Below, piece by piece: positions 7,945-57,278 of a DNA stretch of 64,000 nucleotides (positions are counted from its first letter, which is position 1; each line of letters opens with the position of its first letter). Source of the DNA: an uncultured Gammaproteobacteria bacterium. Lineage in GTDB: Bacteria > Patescibacteriota > Patescibacteriia > VMEV01 > CAYQCH01. The DNA is taken from contig CAYQCH010000001.1 in NCBI GenBank assembly GCA_964415935.1, positions 1,144 to 65,143 of the forward strand, in the 5' to 3' direction. The notes beneath the pieces were generated by a model. The model had not been told where the DNA came from. It saw only the letters and a program-made list of their open reading frames with translations, and searched no databases. Position numbers and translations under genes: made by a program.

Positions 7945-8016
7945 AAAAAACCGGCTTGACAAAAACTTAGGTTCGCTGTTAGAGTATAGCAATCGTCGTT
8001 AAAAGTGAATACATTT

Positions 8017-23801: not shown

Positions 23802-23869
23802 AAGGACACGGGGCGATTCATTGAAATGATACCAATTTCCCAGCCTGCGGTCTCTGTGTATAAAAGACA

Positions 23870-26800: not shown

Positions 26801-28864
26801 TAAAAATACTTCGTAAATACCTGGATCCAGGCGCGGGACCCGGAACGCGCGCTGCTCGCCTTTGCGGAAGAAGCGCAAACAGCTGTCCGGCAGTCTGGTG
26901 TCGGCCAGCGTGACTTCACCTGTGCGCGGGTTTAAAAACTTCACAAGCGGCGTGCGCGACAAATTTTCGCCGATGATGGAGAAAATTTGTCCGACCGGGC
27001 CGCGATCCGGAGAAACGGAATCCAGGCGCGGCAACGTAGGCGATGAGGTCACAGACATGAACACCGGATTGCTGGTCAACGGACCTACCTGCACGCGCAC
27101 GGGCACGACACCCTCCGGCAGGGATGGCACGACCACATCGGAAATCTGTTCGTCTGCCCAGGTGCCGATGCGTCCGGCCCTGGCTTGTCCAAAGGAAACA
27201 TCGCCTAGCGTGGCTCCAAAGCCGTTGCCGCGCAGCGTAACCGGCTCTCCAACTTGCTGGCTGCCCGGTTCAACCGCGCATAAACCCGGGCGCCGCGTGT
27301 CGTTGATTTCAAAAATCACGCGTCCACCCTTGTCGTCATCGGTGGTGTCATACAACCCCTCTGCCGTGGTCAGACGAAGCGCGCCTGTGCGAGCGTTGGC
27401 AGGCACCTGCAGCACGACCTGCGTGTTGCTCCAGGCCCCGACGCATGGAAACGCGTCAACCGTTGCATCGTCGTCGTCCGCGCTCAAGCCAAGAAACACA
27501 AGCGTACCGGTTTCTGTTCCGAAATTACGTCCGCGGACGGTAACAAAATTTCCAGGCGCGCCATTGGCCTCAATCACTTCTTCAATCACCGGATAGTCAC
27601 GGCAGAATCCGCCGACACAGAGGCCGGAGGCGCACTGCGAATTTTCCGTACACGCGGCGCCCTGGCAGAGACGGCAGGTCGGGCCGCCGCAATCGACGCC
27701 TTCTTCATCCTCATTCTGCTGGCCGTCAAAACAATAGGCGGGCAAAATTTCCACGGATATTTCCGGGCTCAGCCCGGTCTGTCCCGCTAAATCAACGGCC
27801 GCGGCTGTAATGGCGTGACGGCTCTTTAGCGCAAGATCGATGGTAAGCCAGGTCGCGCTGCCGCGAAATTCAGTAACGACATCGGGACCGGAAGCCGGCG
27901 CCACGCCCACGGACGATCCATCAACAAAAAATTCCAAAAAGGCCACGGCATAGTCGTCCAATGCCAGGGCTTCCAACAACACGGAGCTGTTCTGCCCCAC
28001 CGCCGCGTCATTATATGGCAAAGTCATGCGAGCCGTGGGAGCGATGGTATCGACAGCCTCACCGGTCACAAATCCAAATGCGCACTGCGAAGTTGGCGAC
28101 GGACAACGGAAGGCATCGCCATCGGCGCTGGTCAAAGCGGAACTTATAACCGCTTCATAGGCCACATTCGCGTCAAAGCAGCGGACTTGTTCATTCGGCG
28201 AGGGACAAGCCTGGTTGGGAACGAATATGGCCCGGCTTCCCTTTACCGACCACGATCCGGCTACAGGAGCTGTTTCACCGGTCTTGCGGACATAGGCATT
28301 CTGCTCAATACCGGTCTGCGTGATGTCCTGGTTAAACAGCAGCTGCACCTGGACGTTGCGGATGGGCACCACGCCGGAAGGCAAGGCATCAATGAGCAAC
28401 AACGCGTCGCGCGTGTCCAGGCCGCTTTGTCCGACCGGCTGCGACAAAGGCGCCTGCTGGCTGGCTCGGCGCTGCTGGCTGCGAATGACAACGAAGCTGA
28501 TAAGCAGCAGTACCGCACAGAGCACGAATACAATGCCAAACACCAGCGCCAGGCGGCGGCCGCGCTCCAAAACAAGGATGTCATTGTTCTGGCTGCCATT
28601 TCGCCAAAGCACGATGCCGTAACTCATGCCTGCCAGGCTGAGAATGAGGCCGACGAATGCGGTTAACTGCAATACGCGCCATACCGTACTCGGCTGAGCT
28701 GCTTCCACTGTGGTTTGCGCCACATTTTGCGACGACGCGCCTTCCGTGACCTGAACGGCGTCCTGGGCCAGAGCCGGAATGGCCACAGCAAAGACTGCAC
28801 CCCAGGCAAACAAAGCGGACACAAGCATGGATCGAAAACAGCGCATACTCAAGCTACGGACCAA
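23870..28864 (-). CDS. Giant surface protein (1664 aa): signal peptide plus TrbC/VirB2-like two-helix membrane hairpin, then Ig-like (Big), Cys-knot and IPT/TIG repeat arrays
   Basis: N-terminus: signal peptide (...AIPALAQ), then hydrophobic helix, W-R-N-G-S-Q-N-N loop, hydrophobic helix. Multiple IPT/TIG-like units (PRLDSVSPDRGPVGQIFSIIGENL, LCAVEPGSQQVGEPVTLRGNGFG). Has D..AP-type Big starts. No LPXTG or C-terminal TM. Overlaps or abuts the upstream gene. Confidence 0.6.
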   Translation of the reverse strand: MVRSLSMRCFRSMLVSALFAWGAVFAVAIPALAQDAVQVTEGASSQNVAQTTVEAAQPSTVWRVLQLTAFVGLILSLAGMSYGIVLWRNGSQNNDILVLERGRRLALVFGIVFVLCAVLLLISFVVIRSQQRRASQQAPLSQPVGQSGLDTRDALLLIDALPSGVVPIRNVQVQLLFNQDITQTGIEQNAYVRKTGETAPVAGSWSVKGSRAIFVPNQACPSPNEQVRCFDANVAYEAVISSALTSADGDAFRCPSPTSQCAFGFVTGEAVDTIAPTARMTLPYNDAAVGQNSSVLLEALALDDYAVAFLEFFVDGSSVGVAPASGPDVVTEFRGSATWLTIDLALKSRHAITAAAVDLAGQTGLSPEISVEILPAYCFDGQQNEDEEGVDCGGPTCRLCQGAACTENSQCASGLCVGGFCRDYPVIEEVIEANGAPGNFVTVRGRNFGTETGTLVFLGLSADDDDATVDAFPCVGAWSNTQVVLQVPANARTGALRLTTAEGLYDTTDDDKGGRVIFEINDTRRPGLCAVEPGSQQVGEPVTLRGNGFGATLGDVSFGQARAGRIGTWADEQISDVVVPSLPEGVVPVRVQVGPLTSNPVFMSVTSSPTLPRLDSVSPDRGPVGQIFSIIGENLSRTPLVKFLNPRTGEVTLADTRLPDSCLRFFRKGEQRAFRVPRLDPGIYEVFLETDAGRSNPASFTVTAGGRLPGLCAMEPDNGPLGIETVLYGEGFGVNKGGVRFHSRVDISDVVSWNDGQIRVAVPPTAQTGLVQVIASTGQLSNGLNFRVGQCSPDTCGTGFECCSSGACQAAGTCSEALPLCTYSWTFGTGDDLGGIPRVIEQATCKNNTQSPSPFKDTVDACLNAAVSARFTHDMKDATLNAGTVELRRCNTGPSFDGGSCQTTVSLSNFVIINSNQPGEGFIAQPQPAFVPDTWYQVTIANTVEAENGNRMENPYRWTFKTQSGEGACAVDHVEVTPATATLKKVGATQAYTGVATALNCNILDGSAYTWGWLSADTSKAVLETSRTYQNRATAKGATDPGPAVDIIASIPEFSKEDSGQLRISLEPPLVVDKWPNCSSACINAALGAKFNQEMQEASVTANANVELHECKDAACARANTASIGVTSLTYNNTSFTLHFLPNISAFKVATKYRVVLKGMRSASGLPLSGLNYDADGDGTIDSYSWLFSTRNDPNQCQIEDVLIDPPTAISSLILEEFNYQALPVAPADACNQYGQILRGDTMDWVWGVSVPKVASVTQQDVLPLENFKDWAQITTSRGEGSTKVRASTQGVNGEGDFTVQCGFQTDNQCPSPATVQSHGVGSDSCCYPRPGIIGSNPRNGAEAVCTTLGIELEFDQPMNQASLVSGIILEINNGGIPCPSVAPTAWWPKAKYYASRALSWVIPATQAQGENWCRVESSVSVSNTDVGSSARVYPKQKLQDDRQYRVRTVGDLNLDDNVPEGVRNSFNVAVSGEDVRTFRTGKAECKLDYVDVLITPPGEPGRLDVAFCAARNDCPGDVNATKEGNQHAYLATGRDRAGFIVPADFTWTVEGDPILTLDPATGEQVEMTPNPQNGEATVTVTARAQAPSQGTISRTLDVVTFLCENPWPDITSFPYVDTAFNYDIFYCRDAGEPGFDDDLPPLSSPVTGQNVGGVLKESLFIIE

Positions 28865-30470
28865 CGCAAGGCTGGTAGCAATTCTGATAAATGTCTTTTA
28901 CGTTTGATGACACAACGGGCGTGTATGTCGCATTCTCATCCAACCCTGCGTGCACCATCTGCACGACCGTCTGATTTTCTTCCACGGACGAAGAAATCTG
29001 ATAATCAAGCCCGGGAACCTGCACGGTCTGGCGGTTGATGGTCTTTAACCACAGGGGTTTATCGAAGGTAACGGTCAAGCGGCTGTCGCGCGGGACCAGC
29101 GTGGCGTATGGCTGCGGCGATACCGCGCTCACGACGGGCGCGCGCAGGTCTATCTGGTCAGTGGTTTGAAAACTCCAGGCGAAGTCGTCGGCCGGGCTGC
29201 CTTGCGCTGCGCCGTCGACATTGCCATCAAAGGAGTTGCCTGACGCATCTACGACGCCGTCAAACGGAAAGACGGCCACCGGCGGTTGCGCGCTGACCGT
29301 GGCAGCGCGGACGCGTGCCGTAAACTTGGCGCTGGGCGGCAAGCAAAACACGTCCTGGCCGCAGGAATTGGTGCCACATAAATCATTGGTGACGAATTCG
29401 GCCGTGCGGTACTGGTTGCTGATGGTAAACCGGCCTGCCACCACTTCCCCGTTCTGTCCGCGCACGCTCAGGTTGTTAAATCCGCGCGCGGTATCGCCGC
29501 TGACGGCCAAGGGGTTCATGGCTTCGCTGAACGTCACCTGCACGATAATGTTGCGAGCATACGTCTGATCCGGTTGCGGGATAACGCTGACCACGCGCGG
29601 CGGCTCCAGATCAACAAACGTCCCCACCTCGAATTCCCAGGTATAGGCGCCGAAATTACCAAACGCCCCCCTGCCGGCCGCGGTGGAAATGCCCTCTCCC
29701 AGCGTTACGCGATACAGGGTGTTTTGTTCGGCGCTGCCGAGCAAGTCAATGGGGTCAATGACCAGGATGCGGGCGTCGTCGCTGACTGCCGCGCGCGCCG
29801 GAACAAACGGACCGGACTGCGGGTCATCGCTGGCCTTGGAGATAAAAATATTTTGGCCGTTAATCTCGTCGTCGGCCGGATCTTCCGTGCCCTTGTTATT
29901 AATGAGTGAGTCAACCAGCATGGGCTCAACGAAACTGACCATGATGTTGGTGTTGCGCGCAAGATTGGTCTGGCCGCGGTCGGGATAGTGCGATTCGATT
30001 ACGCCCAAAGGAAATCCGCCGCCCCCGCCCAAAAACCCGCCTGTGCCGCGGCGGCCAAAGGATGACGGTTGTGTCTCCGGACCGCCCACCAGGCGGTTGA
30101 GGACGAACGTTACAATGCCGAAAGAAGACAAGATGATGATCAAACCAATCAGGCCGTTGCGCAACAGCGTCTTGGCCGTATTGACCTGGTCATCATTGCC
30201 CGCCGCGGTCATCCAAAGATATCCCGCATATAAAAGCAGCCCCAGGGCGACAATTCCTAAAAAGCCCAGGGCCACTTGTATGACGCGCGCGATAATGACG
30301 CGCGGGTCGCTTCCGCTCAATCCAACCGATTCCGCTTGCTCCAGCCCGACGTCTACCGTCTGGGCAAAAGCCGGTTCATGCAAAACCAGGGATGAAACAA
30401 GCAACGCGGCGATGATGAATCCCGCGAAAATGATGATGCGTTTCAACCCCGAAAGCATGGGAACTTGCAT
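28854..30470 (-). CDS. Surface protein (538 aa) with TrbC/VirB2 pilin-like N-terminal anchor followed by SbsA-type Ig-like (Big_5) domains
   Basis: N-terminus: signal peptide (..HEPAFAQ), then QVALGFLGIVALGLLLYAGYLWMTAAGNDDQVNTAKTLLRNGLIGLIIILSSFGIVTFV, two hydrophobic helices with a short polar loop as in VirB2/TrbC. Gly-rich linker. Two Ig-like modules begin PRVVSVIPQPDQTYA and RAPVVSAVSPQPYATL. Confidence 0.55.
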   Translation of the reverse strand: MQVPMLSGLKRIIIFAGFIIAALLVSSLVLHEPAFAQTVDVGLEQAESVGLSGSDPRVIIARVIQVALGFLGIVALGLLLYAGYLWMTAAGNDDQVNTAKTLLRNGLIGLIIILSSFGIVTFVLNRLVGGPETQPSSFGRRGTGGFLGGGGGFPLGVIESHYPDRGQTNLARNTNIMVSFVEPMLVDSLINNKGTEDPADDEINGQNIFISKASDDPQSGPFVPARAAVSDDARILVIDPIDLLGSAEQNTLYRVTLGEGISTAAGRGAFGNFGAYTWEFEVGTFVDLEPPRVVSVIPQPDQTYARNIIVQVTFSEAMNPLAVSGDTARGFNNLSVRGQNGEVVAGRFTISNQYRTAEFVTNDLCGTNSCGQDVFCLPPSAKFTARVRAATVSAQPPVAVFPFDGVVDASGNSFDGNVDGAAQGSPADDFAWSFQTTDQIDLRAPVVSAVSPQPYATLVPRDSRLTVTFDKPLWLKTINRQTVQVPGLDYQISSSVEENQTVVQMVHAGLDENATYTPVVSSNVKDIYQNCYQPCVGP

Positions 30471-34562: not shown

Positions 34563-35978
34563 ATGGAACCAAAACGTCGCTGGTGGAAATTCTTGCTATA
34601 CCCCGTCATTGTTGCCGCGGTTTTTTTGTTTGTACTCGGCCTGCGCGTGTCGTACAGCAATGATTCGTTTTGGGAATATGTTTCCGAACATTACATCCGG
34701 CCGACATTTTCATTATCTTCTTCCCTCTCCGTCCTCACGGCATCGGCCGACCAGGTTTTGGTGGGCGCGCAGGAAGACCGCATCAACATTTTGCTATTGG
34801 GTATTGGCGGCAAAGGCCATGAAGGGTCAAATCTCACGGACACCATCATTGTCGCCAGCTACAAACCCTCCACGAATGAAGTGGGCATGATGTCCATCCC
34901 GCGCGATTTGCTGGTGCCCATTCCGGGGTATGGCTGGCGCAAGGTCAACAATTTGTATTCCATCGCCGAATACAATGACCGCGGTACGGGCGGCGACTAC
35001 GCCAAACAAATCATCAGCCAGATTTTTGACGTGCAGATCCCGTATTACATCCGCATTGACTTCAACGGTTTCACGCAGCTTGTCGATCTGGTGGGCGGCA
35101 TCGACGTGGATGTGCCGAACACGCTTTCTGATTACCAATATCCCATCCCGGGCCGCGAAGAAGCACCTGAGGATGAGCGATACGAACACCTGTACATCGA
35201 AGCGGGCGCCCAGCATTTTGACGGGCAAACAGCGCTTAAATACGTACGTTCACGACACGGACAAGGCGAAGAAGGGTCAGACTTCGCGCGCGCCAAACGC
35301 CAGCAGCTTGTCATCGAAGCCCTGATGGACAAGGTCTTTTCGCTTAACACTTTGTTGCGGCCGAGCAAGATTAAAAAAATCCAGGCGAACCTGGAAGAAA
35401 ATATCGATACGAATTTGAACGCTGATGAGCTGGCCGCCTTTGCCAAACTGGCCGCCCAGTACCTGGGCGACAAAAAGCCCGTCATCACGCGCGTGCTGAG
35501 CGACGCCAATAACGGCCCGCTGGAAGCCGCCAATTATAACGGCGCTTTTGTACTCGAACCGAAAGTGGAAGACTTCAGTGAATTAAAATTCATCGCTAAA
35601 AACATTTTTGCCCCGGACCTGGTATACGAGCGGCCAACGGAAGAAGAAAGCGGCTTGCCTCGCGTTACCCTGGAAAACCCCGTGCAAGCCAAGGACGCCG
35701 CAACCATTGAAATTCAGAACGGCACCTTCGTGAATGGTTTGGCGCGCGCCACGCAAGAAAAGCTGTCTTCGCTTGAATATGAAATCGTCAGCATCGGCAA
35801 CGCCGCCAGCCGCGATTACGCGGAAACCATTATTTATGACTTCAGCAACGGCGCATACCCGGACACGCTCGACTTCCTGGCAACCAATTATACGGACAAT
35901 ATCACGGCCAGCATCCCGCTCGGCCTGACTTCAAGCGCCGACTTCCTGATCATTCTGGGACTGGACGCCGCCTACTAA
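34563..35978 (+). CDS. LytR-CpsA-Psr (LCP) family cell-envelope phosphotransferase with a C-terminal LytR_C-like domain
   Basis: N-terminal TM, then LCP core (NILLLGIGGKGHEGSNLTDTIIVASYKP...MMSIPRDL...G..KVN). Confidence 0.85.
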   Translation: MEPKRRWWKFLLYPVIVAAVFLFVLGLRVSYSNDSFWEYVSEHYIRPTFSLSSSLSVLTASADQVLVGAQEDRINILLLGIGGKGHEGSNLTDTIIVASYKPSTNEVGMMSIPRDLLVPIPGYGWRKVNNLYSIAEYNDRGTGGDYAKQIISQIFDVQIPYYIRIDFNGFTQLVDLVGGIDVDVPNTLSDYQYPIPGREEAPEDERYEHLYIEAGAQHFDGQTALKYVRSRHGQGEEGSDFARAKRQQLVIEALMDKVFSLNTLLRPSKIKKIQANLEENIDTNLNADELAAFAKLAAQYLGDKKPVITRVLSDANNGPLEAANYNGAFVLEPKVEDFSELKFIAKNIFAPDLVYERPTEEESGLPRVTLENPVQAKDAATIEIQNGTFVNGLARATQEKLSSLEYEIVSIGNAASRDYAETIIYDFSNGAYPDTLDFLATNYTDNITASIPLGLTSSADFLIILGLDAAY

Positions 35979-35979
35979 T

Positions 35980-37320
35980 ATGCCAACTGACCGCCTCCCA
36001 TCCGTGGTGCTTGTCGGCCGCACGAACGTCGGCAAATCGACGCTCTTCAATCGGCTGACGGAAACCGAACATGCCATCGTCTCCCCCATCGGCGGGACAA
36101 CGAGAGACCGCAACATCGCCAATGTCGAATGGGTTGGTTACAATTTCAATTTGATCGACACGGGCGGCCTTGACTTGAGCCATCCGGACGACGTGGAAAA
36201 AAAGGTGTTTGAAATGGCCTGGCGTTCGGTGCAGGAAGCCGACCTTATTTTGCTTGTGTTGGACGCTAAAGACGGCCTGCTGCCGCAAGACCAGGATATC
36301 GCCCGACAGCTGCGCGAAAAAGGCAAAGACTTCATTGTTGTGGCGAACAAAGCGGACAGCCCCTCGTTGAAACATCAATCCGCTGAATTTTTTGCCGTTG
36401 CAAAAACCGTGTTTCCCGTCTCTGCCGCCAACGGCACCGGAACCGGCGACCTGCTCGACTATGTCGTAGCGAGGCTGTTCCCTGCCAAACCCGCGCCGTC
36501 GCCTGCCTCGCCGATGGAAACGCGCGAAGAAATTTCCATCACCTTTGCCGGATTGCCAAATGTGGGAAAATCGTCCCTGCTTAATTCCCTTCTTGGGCGC
36601 GAGGAAGTTATTGTCAGCCCCAAGCCGCATACCACGCGCGAATCCCGCGACGTGTTTTTAGAGTTTGAAGGCCATCCCATCCGGCTGGTAGACACGGCAG
36701 GCATCCGCAAGCAGCAAAAACTGCGCGGTACCCTCGTGCAACAAAGCGCGGCGCGTTCCCTGCAGGCTATCCGCCAAGCGGACTGGGTCGTGCTGGTCGT
36801 TGACGCTACTAAAGACAACTGGGGCGAACAGGACCATTACATTTTGGATACCATCATCAAATCCGGCGCTTCCGTGATTATTGCCGCAAACAAATGGGAT
36901 ATGCTTGAAGGCGAAGACCGATACGAACAGTTTAAGAAACGCTTTGCCCGCGAATTCGGTTTATATGACTGGATTCCCGTCGTTGCCATCAGCGCCAAAA
37001 GCGGCTGGCATGTGGCCCGCGTGCTGCGCACCATCATTGAACTGCATCCCAACCGCAAACGCGAAATCCCGCAAAGTGCACTGGATCGCCTGCTCAAAAA
37101 GGCCGTAGCGCGCCGACGCCCGCAAAAGAAAAAGGGGCCCGAAGCGCCCTACATCCACGCCATCAAACAGGTCGGTACGGAGCCGCCGCATTTTGAAGTC
37201 ATCATCGACTACGACAACACCCTGGCGCATTTTTACGTCCGGTACCTCATGAAAGTGATCCGCGCGCAATTTGAATTTGACGGCACGCCCATCCGTATCC
37301 ATGTCCGTGCCATCCGTTAA
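35980..37320 (+). CDS. der: Ribosome-biogenesis GTPase Der (EngA), tandem GTPase domains plus a KH-like C-terminus
   Basis: Two G domains (GRTNVGKST...DTGG...NKAD and GLPNVGKSS...DTAG...NKWD). Confidence 0.9.
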   Translation: MPTDRLPSVVLVGRTNVGKSTLFNRLTETEHAIVSPIGGTTRDRNIANVEWVGYNFNLIDTGGLDLSHPDDVEKKVFEMAWRSVQEADLILLVLDAKDGLLPQDQDIARQLREKGKDFIVVANKADSPSLKHQSAEFFAVAKTVFPVSAANGTGTGDLLDYVVARLFPAKPAPSPASPMETREEISITFAGLPNVGKSSLLNSLLGREEVIVSPKPHTTRESRDVFLEFEGHPIRLVDTAGIRKQQKLRGTLVQQSAARSLQAIRQADWVVLVVDATKDNWGEQDHYILDTIIKSGASVIIAANKWDMLEGEDRYEQFKKRFAREFGLYDWIPVVAISAKSGWHVARVLRTIIELHPNRKREIPQSALDRLLKKAVARRRPQKKKGPEAPYIHAIKQVGTEPPHFEVIIDYDNTLAHFYVRYLMKVIRAQFEFDGTPIRIHVRAIR

Positions 37321-37321
37321 T

Positions 37322-37888
37322 ATGAAATTGATTGTCGGTCTCGGAAATCCGGGCAAGCAATACGAACACACGCGGCATAACCTCGGCTTTATGGCCGTGG
37401 ACGCCCTGGCGGAACGCCTGGATGCCGCCGAATGGAAAAAACATCATAAAGCGAATGCGCTGGTTGCTGAGGCCATGGTTGGCGGTGAAAAATGCCTGCT
37501 AGCCAAACCGCAGACCTTTATGAACAACTCTGGCGAGGCGGCGCAGGCGCTGATGGCGTTTTACAAGCTTCAATCAGGGGATGTCATTATCGCGCACGAT
37601 GAACTGGACCTGCCGTTTGGAACGCTGCGCATCAGTATTGACGCTTCGGCGGGTGGGCATAACGGCGTGGCTTCCGTCATGGAAAAACTCGGCACCAGGA
37701 ATATCACTCGCTTGCGCATGGGCATCCGCGGCTCGCAAAAAGGGAGTATCCCGGGCGACAAATATGTTTTGCTCCCTTTCTCCTTGCTGGAACGATTAAA
37801 ACGAAAGTCCGTTGTTTCCCATGCCGCTGAGGCGCTGGAATGCCTGGCCGCGCATGACGCGCAAACCTGCATGAACCGATTTAACTAA
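37322..37888 (+). CDS. pth: Peptidyl-tRNA hydrolase
   Basis: MKLIVGLGNPG...HNLGF...; starts 2 nt after the der stop. Confidence 0.9.
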   Translation: MKLIVGLGNPGKQYEHTRHNLGFMAVDALAERLDAAEWKKHHKANALVAEAMVGGEKCLLAKPQTFMNNSGEAAQALMAFYKLQSGDVIIAHDELDLPFGTLRISIDASAGGHNGVASVMEKLGTRNITRLRMGIRGSQKGSIPGDKYVLLPFSLLERLKRKSVVSHAAEALECLAAHDAQTCMNRFN

Positions 37889-37915
37889 AAAAGCCCGCCA
37901 TGCGGGGCTTTTTTG
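37887..37915. terminator. Bidirectional Rho-independent terminator between convergent pth and atpC
   Basis: Sequence aaaaagcccgccatgcggggcttttttg. Confidence 0.7.
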
Positions 37916-37917
37916 CA

Positions 37918-38319
37918 TTACTTCCGCCACTTCGTAAACGCGCTGACGCGCACGCGATGCTTGTCCAGGTTCGTCTTTAATGTCTCGTATTCGCGCAGAT
38001 CAAATTTCTTTTCCGCCATAAGCGCCTGCGCCAGTTCCATGGCTTTTTGGGCGCGCTCCAGGTCGACTTCATGGGCATGCTCAGCCGTGTCTGCCAGAAT
38101 GGTCACCTGGTTGTTGGCGACTTCCAGGAATCCTCCGGACACGACCACCGGTTTTACAGCCGAACCGCTTTTAATGACGATTTCGCCGGGCTTTAAGACG
38201 GAGATCAACGCGATGTGATGAGGCAAAATGGTTACCTGGCCGTCCAGAGTCATGGCGGAAACTGATTCCACTTCCTCCTCAAACATCACGCGCTCCGGCG
38301 TGACAAATTTGAGCTTCAT
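37918..38319 (-). CDS. atpC: ATP synthase F1 epsilon subunit
   Basis: Met8 start (MKLKFVTPERVMFEEEV...) and last position in the atp operon. Confidence 0.85.
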   Translation of the reverse strand: MKLKFVTPERVMFEEEVESVSAMTLDGQVTILPHHIALISVLKPGEIVIKSGSAVKPVVVSGGFLEVANNQVTILADTAEHAHEVDLERAQKAMELAQALMAEKKFDLREYETLKTNLDKHRVRVSAFTKWRK

Positions 38320-38350
38320 GGTGCGCTTTTCGCCAGGCATAGTTCTTGAA

Positions 38351-40658
<2,308 letters not shown>

Positions 40659-40661
40659 AGG

Positions 40662-42192
<1,531 letters not shown>

Positions 42193-44545: not shown

Positions 44546-45331
44546 CTACAATCGGGCATCCACGCGGATTCCGACGGGACAATGGTCAGAACCCATGACC
44601 TGCGGCCAAATAAAGGCATCCTTGACATGTTTCATGAATTCCTGGTTTACCCAAAAATAGTCGATTCGCCATCCGACATTGCGGTCGCGCGCCCGGGTTT
44701 TCTGGTCCCAATAACTATACTGATGCGGCTCTTTGCTGAAATGGCGGAACGTGTCGGCGTATCCAAGCTGCTGCAGCGTATCAAGCCGCTTGCGCTCAAC
44801 AGGCATAAATCCGGAATTTTTAACATTCTCCTTGGGGCGTGCCAGGTCGATCTCATGATGCGCGGTGTTGTAATCGCCGCAAACGACAATGTTCTTCCCT
44901 TTCTTACGGAACGTCTCGATGTATGTGTAAAACTTGTCGTAAAAATTCAGCTTGTACTTCAGCCGGACCGGGCCGCTGCCGCCGTTGGGAAAGTAGACGT
45001 TAAACAAAACAAAATCTTCAAATTCAAGCAGGTTCACTCGGCCTTCTTCGTCCAGCCAGTCCTGTTCAAAATTGGTCATGGACATGCGCGGGCAGCTTTT
45101 TGTAAACACGGCCGTGCCGCTGTACCCCGGCCGGTTTGCCGACGACCAGAACGTGTAATACCCTTCCGGCCGCAGCAGTTCGTCCGTTAACTGTTCCACA
45201 TGCGCTTTTGTTTCTTGCACGCAGAGCACATCGGGTTTAGCCTCTTGCAGCCATTGTAAAAATCCTTTTTTGTGCGCGGCGCGGATGCCGTTAACATTCC
45301 AGGAAACCAGCGTGGTAAATTTTTTCGCCAT
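44546..45331 (-). CDS. xthA: Exodeoxyribonuclease III (AP endonuclease, ExoIII family)
   Basis: WNVNG, QETK, GDYN and SDHCP motifs. An extended -10 TGCTATACT sits 7 nt from the ATG (leaderless). Confidence 0.9.
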   Translation of the reverse strand: MAKKFTTLVSWNVNGIRAAHKKGFLQWLQEAKPDVLCVQETKAHVEQLTDELLRPEGYYTFWSSANRPGYSGTAVFTKSCPRMSMTNFEQDWLDEEGRVNLLEFEDFVLFNVYFPNGGSGPVRLKYKLNFYDKFYTYIETFRKKGKNIVVCGDYNTAHHEIDLARPKENVKNSGFMPVERKRLDTLQQLGYADTFRHFSKEPHQYSYWDQKTRARDRNVGWRIDYFWVNQEFMKHVKDAFIWPQVMGSDHCPVGIRVDARL

Positions 45332-45371
45332 AGATACCAGTATAGCAAAAGGAAAGGTCCCGTTTGATTTC

Positions 45372-45623
45372 TCATTCGGGACCTGGCTCTGGCGTAATCA
45401 GGCCGAGACGGCACAGGACCTTGTCCATAAGCCACATGAACACATCGACCGGCGCGGCCAGAACCATCAAAACGCCCCATCCGATGATGCATGCCATGAG
45501 GATGAACACGACATACGTCATGCGAAAGACATTCATGATGCTCATGGGCGCATCTTCAAAAAATGAACAAAACGCCTGAAAGCGGGTCTCGCGAACCGCA
45601 CCTTGTTGCCCGTACATGGGCAC
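45372..45623 (-). CDS. Small hypothetical membrane protein (83 aa, 2 TM)
   Basis: Hydrophobic segments only; weak evidence. Confidence 0.3.
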   Translation of the reverse strand: MPMYGQQGAVRETRFQAFCSFFEDAPMSIMNVFRMTYVVFILMACIIGWGVLMVLAAPVDVFMWLMDKVLCRLGLITPEPGPE

Positions 45624-45663: not shown

Positions 45664-46437
45664 TTACCTGATATCAAACAAATACAATTCAAGCGAGCCA
45701 AACCTTGTAAACGCTGAAGAAAAAAGGTAAATCCAGTTACCGAGCAGCAGGATGCCAATCACCATCATGAGTATGCCCGAAACGCGCATGAGGATGTTCA
45801 GGCTGCGGCGATGCCGGCGAAGCAACTCAATACCGCGATGCAGGAACAGGCTGATGAGGAGAAACGGCGTGCCCAGCCCGATGCCGTAAAAAAACAGCAG
45901 CAGCGCGCCCTGCCAGAAACTGGCCGCCTGGCTGGACCAGAACAAGATGACGGCAAGCACCGGGCCAATGCACGGTGTCCACGAAAACCCGAACGATACC
46001 CCGATGATAAAGGCGTTGAGGGGGGCGAAACGCGTCAGCTTTGTGGGCAGTTGCAACCGTTTGGTAAAACTTAAGAACCGCAGCTCAAACAAGCCGGCGA
46101 TATACGCGCCGACCACAATGAGCAACAATCCGCCAATCGTATGCATGATGCCGCGATAGGCCTGCAGCTTGGCGCCGATCAAGGTAACCGTCAGCCCGAA
46201 CAGCATGAACACGAACACAAACCCGGCGACGTACGCCAGGCTGGTGGCCAGAAGCAGGCGGCGCAGCGATTTTGCCTGCTTCGGGTCTAGGGTGGCAGAC
46301 TGCGTTTCCTGCAATGAAACGCCGGCAATGTAACTCATGTACGCCGGCACTAAAGGCAAGTGGCAGGGCGCGATAAAGGTAACGAGCCCTGCCACATAGG
46401 CAACAAAGACCGAAATTTCGTTTGCTTGAAGAACCAT
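45664..46437 (-). CDS. ccdA: Cytochrome c-type biogenesis / thiol-disulfide transporter CcdA (DsbD-beta family)
   Basis: Conserved Cys pair in TM1 and TM4 (FIAPCHLPLVP, WTPCIGPVL). ORF extends to 46500; Met22 is the probable start. Confidence 0.8.
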   Translation of the reverse strand: MVLQANEISVFVAYVAGLVTFIAPCHLPLVPAYMSYIAGVSLQETQSATLDPKQAKSLRRLLLATSLAYVAGFVFVFMLFGLTVTLIGAKLQAYRGIMHTIGGLLLIVVGAYIAGLFELRFLSFTKRLQLPTKLTRFAPLNAFIIGVSFGFSWTPCIGPVLAVILFWSSQAASFWQGALLLFFYGIGLGTPFLLISLFLHRGIELLRRHRRSLNILMRVSGILMMVIGILLLGNWIYLFSSAFTRFGSLELYLFDIR

Positions 46438-46517
46438 ACAGTACGCGCAGTTATACACGGCCAGCGGCGGGATATTCCGCAGTATAGCATCCTGAAACAT
46501 GATATACTTTACTCTCT

Positions 46518-46703
46518 ATGCAATCCGCACCTTCATCCGGCGCCAGCGGCCTGATGGCCGTAGCCGCGGCCTATAAAGCGCAGCAACAAAAAATGAAAGC
46601 CTTGGAAACGGAGCAACTGGCGCTGCTCCAGGAAGCCATGCGCCTTTTACAAGAGAGCCGCATGAGCGAGGCCCGAAAAAAACTGGAAGCCATCCTCCAA
46701 TAA
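46518..46703 (+). CDS. Small helical ORF (61 aa) immediately upstream of the giant coiled-coil gene, leaderless-type start
   Basis: An extended -10 TGATATACT lies 9 nt upstream of the ATG. Sequence ...KMKALETEQLALLQEAMRLLQESRMSEARKKLEAILQ. Its stop is 8 nt before the next start. Confidence 0.35.
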   Translation: MQSAPSSGASGLMAVAAAYKAQQQKMKALETEQLALLQEAMRLLQESRMSEARKKLEAILQ

Positions 46704-46711
46704 TTTTGCCT

Positions 46712-49330
46712 ATGCCAACAAGCACGGTTGCCCCATCCGCCGAACAACCCATACGCAAGTCCGAGCCCTTTGACATGCCGGTGCGCAAACGGGAGGCTGC
46801 GGGAAAAACAGAAATTCCCCAGGGTTTTTCCGAATCCGCCGATGATGCCGTACGCGCGGCGGAGCAGATTAAGCAAATCGCCGATCATATTAACCGTTCC
46901 GTCGAGCAGGCGCGCGCCACCCATCAACGCATCATGGGAATCGAAGTTTCCGGAAACCAGCGCCTGGATGAAATCAAAGCAACGTCCGCATCCCTCCTCA
47001 AAGAAATGGAGGACTTGCGCGCCGATGTCATGACGCATGGCATTCAAAACATGGATGCGGAAGTTCTTGCCAGCCGACAAAAAGAAATTACGCAGAACTT
47101 GTCCGCCTTGGCCGAAGATGCAGAAGGCGCTTCCCTCCCGTCGGCACGCGAACCGGAGGTAAAAACGGCATTTCAACAACATTTGGAATCGGTAGAGAAA
47201 CTCGAACTTGATGAGCCACTGGAATTGGTTCCCGAGGAAGAACCGTCCGCTCCGGACATCGCCGAACAGCAAGCCGCTGAGGCCGCGGCAGCACCTGAAG
47301 AAATACAGCCTGAGCCTGCGGCGCCCCAACCCGCAGAAACTGAGCCTGCATCGGCCGCAGAAGCGCCTGCTGCGCGCCAAACGGAGTCATACGACCGTTC
47401 TGCCGCCTGGCAAGAGATGCGCGTCAAATTGAAAAGCATCGACCGCGTGCGGGAAGACGTGTTCAAAACGAAGGACCAGTTAAACGAAGTCGCGCGGGAA
47501 ATAAAACGGCTTACGGCCAGCATGGAATCCGCGGACGCCCAATTCGGATCAATTGATGGTCTGGTGGACGCCATTGCCGACGCCCAGGCCATGATCGGCG
47601 GACGGGAATCCGCCGCGGCCGCGCGCGAAAAGCTGCAAGCGCTGATAACCGCCTATCAAGAGGGCAACGAAGACCTGCCGACCAACCTGATCCGCGAACT
47701 CAAATCCATTTCGGGAACAGAAGGGCTGTCCAGGCAAATTCAAGAAGCGCGGCAACGCGCTGCCAAGGCCGGGATTCTCCAAAAAGCTAGCCAGTTGTTG
47801 CAATCCGTTTTGGGGTACACCGAAGTTTCCGGATTGGAATTTGTGCAGGCCCATGCAAAAAAGCAGCTTACGGACGCGGTAGACACCCTCATGCAGCGCC
47901 TGCGCAATGAACATCAGCTCGCCTATTTGAAAGATAGGAAAAAAGAGCTGGAACTGGAAAAAGAGTCGCAACTGCAGCAGATTGCCTTTGACGTGAGGCT
48001 GGAAGCGCTCATGGCCGATGCTATCGCCGCTGAACAAGGCGCGGCCATGGTCAAAAAGCGCATGGATGCATTCCTCAAAAACCTTCCCGGCGAGGCTGCC
48101 GCCGCGCTGCAAGACTATCCGCATGCTGCCCCAACGGAAGTTCATTACCTCATGAGTGCACAAGACCGCCAGACGTATGAACGACTGGCTGCGCAATACC
48201 ATGCGCACATGGAAAAATTTAACGCCGCTTTGGACGAAATGGCCGGCATGAGCAAAGACGGCGTGGCCGCATTCCACGCGCGCCAGTCGCCTCAGGAAAC
48301 AGCCGCCCCCCAGCCCCAGGACGCTGAAACGCCTCGCCAAGCGGAGGAAGAATCTTTGAATACGGCGCTGGAAAACAAGAAGGATCAAATCGACCAGGCC
48401 TGGGATGCCGATACGCGCCAGCGCCTGACAGAGATTCTAAAACGCCACTACCCCAAATACATCAGCGACGAAGACGCGGAAAATGATGTCGCGGAATTCA
48501 TTGCAATCCATCTGCCCGACAAAGCACAGCGCAAACTGTATGAGATGGGCCGTTTGCAACGGGACCTGCGGGACGCGGAATCAGGGGAAGAAATCGACCA
48601 GATCCTCGTGGATAAAGCCGGGCTATTGCGCGATATTGAGGAAGCACTGCGCAATCCGGACCTGCTGCGCAACCCGGACATCCAGGGCGTGAAGAATTTT
48701 TTCAACAAACGCCCTGGTGAGACCACTAAAGCTGATACAGGTGAAAAAACCCTCTCCATGGAAGAGCTGGAAGATATGTCTGGCGATGAGACCGTAGCGC
48801 CGTCATACGCAGAACCCATTGAAGGCTATCTGCCGCCGTCAGAGAAAGAAATCCAAGACAAGCGCGAAGACGCCAGCAAGGACCTCAAAGAGTTATCAGC
48901 CATTTTCCACCAGCGCCTGGGCGACATGTCCCACAGCAAATTGCTGCCGCAAGCCGGCACATGGAACAAGTTGCGCGATTTGGACGCAACCGCCGCCGAC
49001 CTTAAGCGCATTGACATGCTGTCAGCTGATTCCAAAAAGGAGCTGCTTAAGACGCTAATCGAGCTGCATAACAGCTTGAATGACAGGCCTTTTGACCCAT
49101 ACGGATCATCTGCGGCGGAATACTTAGAGATAAAAAGCGGCGGCGCGGAAATCAAAGCCATTGCCGACACGCTGGGCGTAAACCTCAAACAGCTGGTCCG
49201 GGAAATGTCTAAACCCGCAGAAGCAAAAGCCGAACCCGCCAAGGCCGCGCCACGACGAAAGCCGCGGCAAGCGCCCCCGCCCAAACCGATACGCCGCCGC
49301 CCCGCCACCGCGCGCCCGCGTGCCGCCTAA
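46712..49330 (+). CDS. Large (about 870 aa) charged coiled-coil/low-complexity cytoplasmic protein with a basic Pro/Arg-rich C-terminal tail, function unknown
   Basis: Single uninterrupted ORF with no TM and no NTPase motifs. Composition is E/A/Q/K/R/L-rich. Acidic Pro/Glu/Ala segment (EEEPSAPDIAEQQAAEAAAAPEEIQPEPAAPQPAETEPA). Tail AKAEPAKAAPRRKPRQAPPPKPIRRRPATARPRAA. Confidence 0.6.
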   Translation: MPTSTVAPSAEQPIRKSEPFDMPVRKREAAGKTEIPQGFSESADDAVRAAEQIKQIADHINRSVEQARATHQRIMGIEVSGNQRLDEIKATSASLLKEMEDLRADVMTHGIQNMDAEVLASRQKEITQNLSALAEDAEGASLPSAREPEVKTAFQQHLESVEKLELDEPLELVPEEEPSAPDIAEQQAAEAAAAPEEIQPEPAAPQPAETEPASAAEAPAARQTESYDRSAAWQEMRVKLKSIDRVREDVFKTKDQLNEVAREIKRLTASMESADAQFGSIDGLVDAIADAQAMIGGRESAAAAREKLQALITAYQEGNEDLPTNLIRELKSISGTEGLSRQIQEARQRAAKAGILQKASQLLQSVLGYTEVSGLEFVQAHAKKQLTDAVDTLMQRLRNEHQLAYLKDRKKELELEKESQLQQIAFDVRLEALMADAIAAEQGAAMVKKRMDAFLKNLPGEAAAALQDYPHAAPTEVHYLMSAQDRQTYERLAAQYHAHMEKFNAALDEMAGMSKDGVAAFHARQSPQETAAPQPQDAETPRQAEEESLNTALENKKDQIDQAWDADTRQRLTEILKRHYPKYISDEDAENDVAEFIAIHLPDKAQRKLYEMGRLQRDLRDAESGEEIDQILVDKAGLLRDIEEALRNPDLLRNPDIQGVKNFFNKRPGETTKADTGEKTLSMEELEDMSGDETVAPSYAEPIEGYLPPSEKEIQDKREDASKDLKELSAIFHQRLGDMSHSKLLPQAGTWNKLRDLDATAADLKRIDMLSADSKKELLKTLIELHNSLNDRPFDPYGSSAAEYLEIKSGGAEIKAIADTLGVNLKQLVREMSKPAEAKAEPAKAAPRRKPRQAPPPKPIRRRPATARPRAA

Positions 49331-49333
49331 ACC

Positions 49334-49370
49334 AAAACCCGCTCCGAGACATTCGGAGCGGGTTTTGCGT
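49334..49370. terminator. Bidirectional terminator between the convergent coiled-coil gene and rpoD
   Basis: Sequence aaaacccgctccgagacattcggagcgggttttgcgtttt. Confidence 0.75.
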
Positions 49371-49371
49371 T

Positions 49372-50586
49372 TTAGCGGAGATAATCTTTTAGCCGGCTGA
49401 TCTGCGGCATGTTCAAGGCGTTCTGCAATGCCTTGGCTTCAATCTGGCGGATGCGTTCGCGCGTTACGCCGAATTCCTGACCCACCTCTTCCAGCGTGTG
49501 GGTTACGCCGTCGGTAAGGCCAAAACGCATTTCCAGAATCTTCTGCTCGCGCGGGCTGAGATTTTTAATGATCTCGCGCACATGGTCCTTGAGAAGCTGC
49601 AGGCCGGCTGAGCGATCCGGCATCATGTTCTTTTCGTCTTCAATGAACTCTTCCAGCGTGGAATCCTCATCATCATCGCCGACCGGCGTCTCCAGGGAAA
49701 CCGTGTCTTGGGAAATCTTCATGATATGGCGCACCTTTTCCACGTCTTCGCCCATTTCCGCGGCGATTTCTTCCGGCAGCGGCTCGCGGCCAAGGTCCTG
49801 GATGAGGCGACGCTCCACCTGCTGGAACTTATTGATGGTTTCCACCATGTGCACCGGAATACGGATGGTACGGCTCTGGTCGGCCAAGGCACGCGTGATG
49901 GCCTGACGGATCCACCATGTGGCATACGTGGAGAACTTGTACCCCTTGCGGTATTCAAATTTTTCCACGGCGCGGAACAAGCCGATGTTGCCCTCTTGAA
50001 TCAGGTCCAACAGGGACAAGGACTTGCCCGTAAACTTTTTGGCAATGGACACCACCAGACGCAGGTTGGCTTCAATCAACCGCTGCTTGGCTTCCGGATC
50101 GTTGCGTTCTTTGCGCTTGGCCAGGGCCACTTCTTCTTCCGCAGTCAGCAGCGGCACCTTGCCGATCTCGCGCAGGTACATCTGGATGGAGTCGCTGGAA
50201 ATGTCGCTTAAATCGATGCCCAACACCTTGGACTTCTCTTCCTTCTTGTCCGTTTTTTCGGCCTTCTTCTGTTCGCTTGGCAGCTGAAGCAGTCCGCCTT
50301 TCTGCTCCACGACGCTCACGCCGTAGTCCCAGAGCAGCTCCAAAAAATCTTCAAACACGTCGATATAGTCCTCGATTTCAGGAAATGCGTACAGCACTTC
50401 CTGCTCGGTGAGGAATCCACGCGACTTGGCTGTTTTAAACAAACGATCTAGTGTTTCCTTGTTCGGCGGCACGGCCGGTTCTAGCGGCGCGCGCGGCTTG
50501 CGGCTGGCACTCTTTTTGGCCGCTTTCTTTGCGCTGGATTTGGACTTCTTTGCACGTTGCTTCTTTGCTGGCATACACATGCTCAC
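49372..50586 (-). CDS. rpoD: RNA polymerase primary sigma factor (sigma-70)
   Basis: Regions 2-4 are present ([40 protein letters not shown] and the region 4 HTH). Lys-rich N-terminus. Confidence 0.92.
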
Positions 50587-50619
50587 CAGCCAAAACGCGA
50601 CACCGATTGGCTTGTGGGA

Positions 50620-52434
50620 CTAATTGATTTGAGCTAATTGTTGGGAAAGCACGGAAAAATCCCGGGATAACTGCTGGAGACGGGCCATGTCCTGCGCCCG
50701 TTCCGCATCCCGGATGTCCGCCTGGAGGTTGCGCAGCTGGTCTTCCAGCCGCTTTCGTTTCAGAAACGAGAGGCGCGCGCCCAAAACCTGCGTCGCTTCA
50801 GGTCCGGTCAGCTCGGCGAATTCCTTGTCGCCGTACAGCTGCAAGCGCGAAAAAAAAGTTTGCAAATCATGTGCGAGCCTTTTCGAAAAGGCTTCAGTAA
50901 ACAGGGGGTTCTCCCCTGCTGATATGGCCATATCATAAAATGATTTCATCTCTTTGTAAAGGGCCCGCTCTTCCGACCCGGGCAATATCAAAGAATCTTC
51001 CAATGCGTACCCGTCCAAAAACCCCGGATGCATGGCATATAAGGCCAAAATATCCTGGCTGGCCGATTGCTCCGGCGAAGGCGCGGCGGCCGGTTTTTGC
51101 GGCTCGAGCATGGCCTTGGCGCCGGGCTGCGGCTGGCTGCGCGGCCGCGCGGCCTGGACGGGCTGCTGGCGAAGCACCTGGTACAACGCTTCGTGGCTGG
51201 TCTGGAGTTCATCTCCCAGCAGCCGGACGTAATGTTCCACTTCCACGGGATTGGTGAAATGTTTAAGCATCGATAATACGTCCTGAGCAATCTGTTTCTT
51301 CCCGTCTGGTAGTCGCGGATCATAGGTTGCCAGGCTGCGCGACAAAATAACATCCATCACCGGCCGCGCCGAGGCAATGGCCTGCTCCCACAACACAGGA
51401 TCTTTCTGTATGCATTCATCCGGGTCTTTGCCGTACGGCAGCGTCAGCGCCTTGACGCTCATGCCAGCGCGCAGAGCCAGCTCCATACCCCGCCGCGCCG
51501 CCATGAACCCGGCCGCGTCGGCGTCAAAAGAAAAAATCAACGTATTTGTAAATCGCTTCAGCAAGGCGATTTGCGCTTCCGTAAAAGCCGTGCCCGACAC
51601 GGCGACCACCTGCTTGGCGCCTGCCTGATGCGAACTTATGGCGTCCATGTTTCCTTCCACAACCACGACATGGCCGGCAGCTTTTATGGCTTGCTTCGCC
51701 TGATCCAGCGCGAACACAACCCGACTTTTGTCGTATAGTTCGGTTTGCGGCGTATTGATGTATTTGCCCCCCTCAAACTCCTTGGCGATGGCGCGCGCCG
51801 TAAATCCGACGACGCGGCCGTTTACGTCGCATAATGGAATCATCAGCCGTCCGCGGAACCGGTCGTAATATGAACGGCGCTCCTGGTTGTACACCATGAC
51901 GCCGGCCGCAACCATATCTTCATTGGAAAAACCGCGGGAAGACAAAAACTTCTGCAAAACGTCCCAGGCATCGGGCGCGAATCCGATGTTGAAGGTGGAC
52001 AACGTCTCCGGACGTAGGCCGCGGGAGGTGGTATACGCGCGCGCCCCCGCCGCCTGCGGATGTGATGTCAAAATCTTGTGATAAAACGCGCGCGTTGTCT
52101 CCAGCACCTCCCGCAACGCGTCCTTTTTTTGCACCTCCTGGGGAGAAACGCGTTTTTCGATCTTCACGCCCGCGCGTTCTCCAAGAAGTTTTAAGGTTTC
52201 GTAAAAATTCAACCCCTCTATTTTTTGGACAAATGAAAAAATATCGCCGCCCTCATGGCAGCCGAAACAATGCCAGATTTGCTTGCCCTGGCTGACCATG
52301 AATGACGGCGATTTTTCCTGGTGGAACGGACAGTTGCCTTTATGGTTGGCGCCCGCGCGCTTGAGCGGAACGTATTGCTGCACCGTCTCGACAATGTCCA
52401 GCCGCTGTTTGATTTCCTCCACTTCGCGTGACAT
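50620..52434 (-). CDS. dnaG: DNA primase
   Basis: Zinc ribbon (CPFHQEKSPSF...CFGCHEGGD), TOPRIM (EGNMDAIS) and a C-terminal helicase-interaction domain. Confidence 0.92.
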   Translation of the reverse strand: MSREVEEIKQRLDIVETVQQYVPLKRAGANHKGNCPFHQEKSPSFMVSQGKQIWHCFGCHEGGDIFSFVQKIEGLNFYETLKLLGERAGVKIEKRVSPQEVQKKDALREVLETTRAFYHKILTSHPQAAGARAYTTSRGLRPETLSTFNIGFAPDAWDVLQKFLSSRGFSNEDMVAAGVMVYNQERRSYYDRFRGRLMIPLCDVNGRVVGFTARAIAKEFEGGKYINTPQTELYDKSRVVFALDQAKQAIKAAGHVVVVEGNMDAISSHQAGAKQVVAVSGTAFTEAQIALLKRFTNTLIFSFDADAAGFMAARRGMELALRAGMSVKALTLPYGKDPDECIQKDPVLWEQAIASARPVMDVILSRSLATYDPRLPDGKKQIAQDVLSMLKHFTNPVEVEHYVRLLGDELQTSHEALYQVLRQQPVQAARPRSQPQPGAKAMLEPQKPAAAPSPEQSASQDILALYAMHPGFLDGYALEDSLILPGSEERALYKEMKSFYDMAISAGENPLFTEAFSKRLAHDLQTFFSRLQLYGDKEFAELTGPEATQVLGARLSFLKRKRLEDQLRNLQADIRDAERAQDMARLQQLSRDFSVLSQQLAQIN

Positions 52435-57212: not shown

Positions 57213-57245
57213 AACATGCATATCAGGTTCAGATCCCTAGTATAG

Positions 57246-57278
57246 CAAAAGCAGTCCCGCGAAGGGACTGCTTTTGTG
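57246..57278. terminator. Rho-independent terminator after the anti-sigma gene; overlaps the extended -10 of the next promoter
   Basis: Sequence aaaagcagtcccgcgaagggactgcttttgtg; on the minus strand it is followed by TTTTGCTATACT. Confidence 0.65.

Follow-up and report, generated by a model that had tools for sequence, protein, structure and literature searches.

A two-gene unit of one Patescibacteria clade encoding a small basic protein and a large modular helical protein, a candidate cytoplasmic scaffold

In the polar organiser PopZ of Alphaproteobacteria, a C-terminal oligomerisation domain and a short N-terminal client-binding helix flank a linker rich in proline, glutamate and aspartate (PED), and in Mycoplasma, i.e., in reduced-genome, host-attached bacteria, HMW1, P65, P200 and HMW2 are large cytoplasmic proteins of the terminal-organelle cytoskeleton that combine helical or coiled-coil parts with acidic proline-rich (APR) low-complexity domains and have no signal peptide. 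Patescibacteria (candidate phyla radiation, CPR) lack, to our knowledge, many of the canonical cytoskeletal, division and nucleoid-organising proteins. Here we analyse a plus-strand unit of two genes (46518-49330) in a 64,000-nucleotide stretch of contig CAYQCH010000001.1 (assembly GCA_964415935.1; the whole stretch is referred to as the window). The host genome belongs to the Patescibacteria, its rpoD being 62-71% identical to the closest matches, which come from metagenome-assembled genomes labelled mostly as Falkowbacteria, Uhrbacteria, Kerfeldbacteria, Moraniibacteriota and Parcubacteria. The unit comprises a small open reading frame (ORF) of 61 amino acids (aa) and a large ORF of 872 aa, whose product we tentatively read as a cytoplasmic scaffold or tether made of helical modules, acidic spacers and a basic tail.

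A conserved gene pair confined to one clade

Both ORFs are, with high confidence, genuine genes, and together they form a cleanly delimited operon. They remain open and alignable in relatives whose synonymous sites are saturated, and neither frameshifts nor low coding potential, either of which had been named beforehand as grounds for discarding the unit, was seen; instead, coding constraint is clear, and the 61-aa ORF and the long ORF running to 49330 were both recovered as originally described. Pairwise substitutions were counted against L002, a relative at 94% identity. Both ORFs evolve under purifying selection: the small ORF carries no nonsynonymous and three synonymous changes (omega, i.e., the ratio dN/dS of nonsynonymous to synonymous substitution rates, of 0), and the large ORF has an omega of 0.27, the highest among 12 local genes (0.008-0.16 in the others). 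Within the large protein, disordered parts carry more substitutions than the rest, and the N-terminal module has an omega of 0.06. Between close carriers of the pair, rpoD is 87%, xth 78% and dnaG 69% identical, as against just 24-28% for the large protein; across lineages the latter is 21-44% identical and the small protein, at 46-59%, is the better conserved of the two. Divergence from L002, here 97% identical, is mosaic along the window, with 0-6 mismatches per 500 nt at 36750-41000 and ~48830-51000 and 10-40 elsewhere; the cause is either that populations have recombined recently or that the assemblies are chimeric among strains. These low-mismatch tracts explain why codons 708-872 of the large ORF are unchanged and why the synonymous divergence (dS) of rpoD is very low.

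The two ORFs are always adjacent, with 8, 8, 8, 1, 2 and 1 nt between stop and start at six loci. The 8-nt gap of the window had been noted before, whereas the large ORF had been read as 874 aa from a TTG at 46706; all lineages conserve the ATG at 46712 as start codon, within CCTATG at the three closest loci, and the resulting 872-aa form is also the NCBI source version. A frameshifted single gene or a fusion made by programmed frameshifting is excluded, as the frame offset between the ORFs, taken from their coordinates, differs among loci and the stop codon is always kept. We also rejected a regulatory upstream ORF as an explanation of the small ORF, because the sequence of the small protein is better conserved than that of the large one.

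An exhaustive HMMER search with the large protein, covering 1.84 billion cluster representatives, matched five clusters only, and a search with the small protein gave seven family members, all of them unnamed; together with contig look-ups, these amount to about six diverged lineages in which the pair is adjacent. The pair is confined to one clade of Patescibacteria and was found nowhere else searched: a scan of GTDB species representatives with profile A1 gave no relative, scans of JGI metagenomes with profiles A5 and A4 no match, and a word-indexed protein search with A7 returned P0001 only, while at 80 rpoD loci of the nearest genomes there was no homologue, nor any analogue in position or composition next to rpoD. 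The fast decay of the large protein explains why relatives go undetected outside the clade. Pfam gave no match at E <= 1 with the window protein and none at E <= 0.1 with the six homologues scanned, and neither protein had a meaningful match in Pfam, NCBIfam, PHROGs or PADLOC. Queried with the single sequence or with profile A4 or A5, PDB sequences yielded chance coiled-coil matches only, and a match of the small protein to a segment of HslV (E = 0.02) in the same sequences was judged fortuitous. Foldseek matches in the PDB (SMC, Rad50 and JetC arms, dynein stalks) all had E > 0.3 and TM-scores <0.15. A literature search on leaderless or coiled-coil proteins of CPR bacteria found nothing relevant.

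Architecture of the two proteins

The large protein is rich in A, E, L, D, Q, R and K and has a net charge of -41. AlphaFold2, run on a six-sequence alignment, predicts an all-alpha protein (mean predicted local distance difference test score, pLDDT, 70; predicted template modelling score, pTM, 0.34) with confident helical regions at aa 42-166, 227-526, 541-655 and 708-835, and low-confidence, presumably disordered stretches at aa 1-41, 166-226, 527-544, 656-707 and 835-872 (modules and spacers in Table 1). In the central region, R229, W233, G296-G297, G335 and G338 are invariant, and the same region holds the best heptad segment (aa 233-298); by a crude heptad score, only 7% of windows lie above the 99.5th percentile of shuffles. 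Comparison of the modules with each other (hhalign) found no internal repeats.

Several features of this architecture had been proposed from the sequence, and were borne out. The acidic PEAx segment is evident at residues 161-200 (net charge -12, 6 Pro), the most acidic 60-mer reaching -17 with 10 Pro, and the basic Pro/Arg tail (last 32 residues net +10, 9 Pro) is kept in all five complete sequences. No transmembrane (TM) segment or signal peptide is present, the maximal 19-residue hydropathy (KD19) being 0.92 in the window protein and 0.72-1.15 across homologues; neither Pfam, NCBIfam, PHROGs nor PADLOC scans revealed an enzymatic domain, and there is no Walker A, i.e., no nucleoside triphosphatase motif. 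A candidate Walker A, AAGKT at aa 29-33, was rejected, as it is non-conserved and misses the required spacing. The charge pattern recurs at the six loci scored, with net charges of -23 to -46, acidic spacers and a tail of +7 to +11 in the last 35 aa, and the same proteins have only 0-1 Cys. Each of the five complete proteins closes with a basic run and then -AA or -AG (PRAA, AKAA, AVAA, RKAG, KKAA), ends which we take to resemble the ssrA- and MuA-type recognition tags of ClpX. A PxxPxR motif was seen in the large proteins of the window and of L001 (PPKPIR and PPKPAR).

The small protein is basic (isoelectric point, pI, 9.3) and, judging by sequence character, is predicted to be helical, with the conserved core AYKxYKQKxQALExQQxALLxEAMGLLQxxKMxDARKKLExML.

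Promoter, terminator and neighbouring genes

The longest-ORF call of the divergent gene ccdA (DsbD_TM, 278 aa; 45664-46500, minus strand) is too long: all four aligned homologues start at M22 of that ORF, i.e., at ATG 46437 (257 aa), so that the 80 nt at 46438-46517 are a divergent intergenic promoter region. It contains two back-to-back TGnTATACT elements, one per strand. The extended -10 of the two-gene unit, TGATATACT, is indeed present 9 nt before the ATG of the 61-aa ORF, as had been described, and lies in intergenic DNA rather than inside ccdA, where it had been placed. The second element, TGCTATACT, points towards ccdA, making the region a bidirectional promoter, and its counterpart AGTATA(C/G)CA is kept upstream at other loci. 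In all five lineages TGnTATACT precedes the ATG of the small ORF by 6-9 nt, in intergenic DNA that is otherwise unalignable, which supports the leaderless or near-leaderless transcript of the original prediction. The -10 places the predicted transcription start at or near the AUG, and there is no Shine-Dalgarno (SD) sequence; the two-gene mRNA is thus probably leaderless or nearly so. The motif TGNTATACT looks like the extended -10 consensus of this lineage, because it occurs five times in the window against 0.35 expected. The leaderless geometry is also seen elsewhere in the genome, one minus-strand copy (45339-45347) being 7 nt before the xth ATG at 45331, so xth is probably leaderless too.

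Inspection of the sequences revealed no purine-rich SD before the large ORF at any of the six loci, and an SD-free gap of 1-8 nt suggests that the large ORF is translated by coupling, i.e., by termination and reinitiation. Downstream of the large ORF, a G+C-rich hairpin with a U-run on both strands (minimum free energy -48.9 kcal/mol, z = -5.6; none of 200 shuffles as stable) has the make-up of a Rho-independent bidirectional terminator, and the same design of A-run, hairpin and T-run is found 3' of the gene in L001, L002, L084, L085 and L086. The unit is therefore transcriptionally insulated from the convergent rpoD. The large protein is probably well expressed.

Table 1 Coordinates of the two-gene unit, its parts and other features (window positions unless a relative is named)
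Feature	Position	Strand	Basis and remarks
Extended -10 TGATATACT	46500-46508	+	TATACT hexamer 46503-46508; 9 nt to ATG 46518
Divergent extended -10 TGCTATACT, facing ccdA	46481-46489	-	Motif search
TGNTATACT copies	7983-7991, 45339-45347, 46481-46489, 46500-46508, 57239-57247	-, -, -, +, -	Motif search of window
Small ORF, 61 aa	46518-46703	+	ORF call, cross-lineage identity, substitution counts
Spacer, 8 nt	46704-46711	+	Small-ORF stop to large-ORF ATG; without SD
Large ORF, 872 aa, 96.6 kDa, pI 5.0, no Cys	46712-49330 (stop codon 49328-49330)	+	ORF call, homologues
N-terminal helical module, aa 42-166	46835-47209	+	Helices 42-75, 83-109, 116-166; pLDDT ~75-92; omega 0.06, most constrained
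Acidic Pro/Glu/Ala-rich disordered spacer (PEAx), aa 167-226	47210-47389	+	pLDDT <50; aligned low-complexity in all homologues
Central helical region, aa 227-526	47390-48289	+	pLDDT 75-93; helix of ~97 residues (360-456)
Second disordered acidic spacer, aa 527-540	48290-48331	+	Much longer in distant homologues
Helical module C1, aa 541-655	48332-48676	+	Invariant W564, F596
Third disordered acidic spacer, aa 656-707	48677-48832	+	pLDDT <50; net -10 in aa 681-720
Helical module C2, aa 708-835	48833-49216	+	Invariant H733, H741, L744-L745, W751, L754, L757
Polycationic Pro/Arg/Lys tail, aa 836-872, predicted disordered, ends -AA	49217-49327	+	Charge, alignment
Bidirectional intrinsic terminator	49334-49366	both	AAAA, 10-bp stem (49338-49347 with 49353-49362), 5-nt loop, TTTT
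LytR_cpsA_psr protein, Der/EngA GTPase, peptidyl-tRNA hydrolase (Pth)	34563-37888	+	pth start overlaps der end
P-type ATPase	L084 7581-9740, L085 7563-9767, L087 7446-9587	-	Heavy-metal-associated domain in L084, L085
Putative small ORFs between xth and ccdA	window 45372-45623, L002 8622-8795, L084 6583-6783, L085 5844-6110	-	ORF call

Every locus shows the same synteny, with ATP synthase, xth, ccdA and, at some loci, a P-type ATPase on one strand, and on the other the small and large ORFs, followed by convergent rpoD, dnaG, a DUF4340 protein and an ABC transporter; the large ORF adjoins rpoD at each complete locus. Conservation of synteny with rpoD-dnaG, put forward as a check in the original prediction, thus holds in the relatives that carry the pair, but the link to rpoD-dnaG that it implied is weak, because the genes converge, a terminator lies between them and synteny in these close relatives extends over the entire region of >20 kb. 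The unit had also been described as the sole substantial plus-strand unit in about 45 kb, and this does not hold: the genes for a LytR_cpsA_psr protein, Der/EngA and Pth form another one (Table 1). Between ~38 and 64 kb no other plus-strand genes were identified, and the one overlapping pair tested there belongs to the minus strand. In distant lineages, a P-type (E1-E2) ATPase is located between ccdA and the divergent promoter, which is without it in the window and L001, and at several loci a small ORF (57-88 aa, without Pfam match) was called between xth and ccdA. Further away, three consecutive large ORFs on the minus strand (21171-30470; 900, 1664 and 538 aa) with TSP_3, Big_5, TIG and Big_7 domains, and with a weak T4SS_pilin match (25.2 bits, just under the cut-off of 26.6), resemble a gene cluster for the cell surface or for adhesion, which would be no surprise in an episymbiont.

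Possible function and comparison with known systems

The reading to which we lean, tentatively, gives the large protein a structural role as scaffold or tether, presumably in the cytoplasm. An extended -10 promoter would drive a near-leaderless mRNA from which the 61-aa protein is translated first, the 872-aa protein would follow by coupling across the SD-free gap of 1-8 nt, and the hairpin would end the transcript before rpoD. The helical bundles of the large protein may then serve as protein-binding platforms, joined by acidic Pro-rich segments that would act as extended, self-repelling linkers, and the basic, helix-incompatible tail could dock the protein on a polyanion, most likely nucleic acid and in second place an anionic membrane or an acidic protein; hydrophobic or amphipathic character is missing from the tail, which makes nucleic acid a likelier ligand than membrane. 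The small protein would most simply be an obligate, stoichiometric partner (acting in co-assembly, capping or as a chaperone), because it is better conserved than the large protein and, given the coupling, probably made in step with it. The roles originally suggested for the large protein, i.e., scaffold, nucleoid-associated protein or polar organiser, would fit this architecture. Several points weigh against this reading. Homology to any characterised scaffold was not found, the packing between modules is unreliable because the alignment held only six sequences (hence the low pTM), the ligand of the tail is a low-confidence guess from composition alone, and leaderless initiation and coupling are both deduced from DNA sequence; moreover, the fast evolution of the large protein would fit a role at the host interface, e.g., as an effector, equally well.

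Two other functions deserve consideration, both of which we hold to be unlikely. The large protein could be a self-assembling cytoskeletal or polar-matrix protein (DivIVA-, PopZ-, Scy/FilP- or Ccrp-like) that polymerises or condenses into a filament or polar hub instead of serving as a monomeric tether, with the small protein as its nucleator or regulator. An all-helical protein with several heptad-like stretches, best at aa 233-298, would suit such a role, its acidic Pro-rich spacer resembles the PED linker of PopZ in composition, and a blocky acidic body with a basic tail would favour multivalent self-association. Yet heptad scores pass the 99.5% threshold in only the small fraction of windows given above, in the predicted structure the helices fold back into bundles, internal repeats are absent, and the six homologues scanned have no match to DivIVA, PopZ or any other Pfam family.

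The second, which we doubt as well, is a host-interaction factor of an episymbiotic CPR cell, i.e., an effector or surface component exported by a non-classical route with the small protein as secretion chaperone. It would account for the highest omega of the local genes and for the steep divergence of the large protein between carriers whose rpoD has hardly changed, it agrees with the near-absence of Cys, and a small helical ORF directly upstream recalls effector-chaperone pairs. Selection is nevertheless purifying overall, with the substitutions concentrated in disordered parts; no homologue has a signal peptide, TM segment or anchor, the neighbours (ccdA, P-type ATPase, rpoD, dnaG) include no secretion genes, and the small protein is basic whereas known secretion chaperones are generally acidic.

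A role as regulator or adaptor associated with the neighbouring rpoD-dnaG genes is, in our view, very unlikely; the large protein would then bind, e.g., the sigma factor or RNA polymerase, and proteolysis through the basic C-terminus with its -AA end might control its level. Adjacency to rpoD at every complete locus, and the basic run with its -AA/-AG end in all five complete sequences (similar to ClpX tags), speak for such a regulator. Against it, the genes converge on a strong bidirectional terminator, synteny over >20 kb in close relatives means that adjacency says little, no comparable gene flanks rpoD in the nearest other CPR lineages, and Pfam gave no sigma-binding or anti-sigma domain. 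Lastly, an artefact or a known mobile-element protein is effectively refuted by the comparative data, be it a spurious ORF, the tape-measure protein of a phage or a surface protein of the M-protein kind whose signal peptide was missed (the latter two had been named among the possible refutations). Long spurious ORFs that overlap real genes are indeed numerous in this window of 55% G+C, and low-complexity composition could mimic a coding region. Yet purifying selection acts on the ORF, which six lineages keep open although their synonymous divergence is saturated; there was no PHROG match at E < 0.03 and none with tail annotation, no tblastn match in 50,697 phage records and no match in IMG/VR; the neighbours are housekeeping genes instead of a tail gene cluster; no homologue has an N-terminal hydrophobic segment or core; and the window protein ends in a polycationic C-terminus without an LPXTG sorting signal.

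A bolder reading, which we regard as a long shot, is that the pair forms the core of a new cytoplasmic structure in one family of ultra-small episymbionts, e.g., an attachment or polar organelle or a nucleoid-tethering matrix. Such a structure would be like the APR proteins of the Mycoplasma terminal organelle or like PopZ condensates, and evolutionarily unrelated to both. For CPR cell organisation, a conserved, enzyme-free modular helical protein whose small partner is presumably obligate makes a sensible candidate for cell architecture peculiar to this clade, and the locus also offers clean comparative evidence, at the level of DNA sequence, for extended -10 elements, leaderless starts and SD-free coupling in a CPR lineage. 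It is at the same time one of very many clade-restricted, uncharacterised CPR proteins, and no unprecedented mechanism is indicated.

As an operon, the unit resembles the leaderless coupled operons of Actinobacteria and Deinococcus, with which it appears to share a -10 at 6-9 nt, the absence of SD and a gap of 1-8 nt; the sole unusual point is the occurrence in CPR, where xth of the same genome seems to start alike. Among proteins, no link in sequence or fold was found to DivIVA, PopZ, SMC or apolipoproteins in Pfam, PDB sequences or Foldseek, and for DivIVA, a family with an N-terminal lipid-binding domain and a coiled coil, the window protein and six homologues are all without a Pfam match. 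The arms of SMC, Rad50, MukB and JetC are the top Foldseek matches to the long helices, all non-significant, and the large protein differs from SMC and Rad50, whose N- and C-terminal ABC ATPase head halves are connected through an antiparallel coiled coil bearing a hinge or zinc hook, in having no SMC_N/AAA match in Pfam, no ATPase head, no hinge and no Walker motif. With the Mycoplasma proteins it shares acidic, proline-rich character in composition only; there is no EAGR box and no Pfam or NCBIfam match above noise that would indicate homology to HMW1, P65 or P200, the only match to a mycoplasma model being TIGR04527 (17.8 bits against a cut-off of 125). To PopZ it is akin, by composition, in being cytoplasmic and non-enzymatic with an acidic Pro/Glu-rich disordered linker between helical regions, but it has no Pfam match to the C-terminal domain, is about five times longer, has a polycationic tail and a small partner gene of its own, and belongs to an unrelated lineage. 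From spectrin, talin, vinculin and EzrA, i.e., proteins of antiparallel three-helix bundles, it is set apart by the lack of sequence homology and of internal repeats, and from EzrA, with its N-terminal TM anchor and spectrin-like repeats, also by having neither a TM segment nor a Pfam match. Its modules are not contiguous as in these proteins but are split by long acidic disordered spacers, and it ends in a basic tail. Even so, the large protein would work most like these three-helix-bundle scaffolds, and it is best filed as an uncharacterised family within the general class of helical scaffold proteins.

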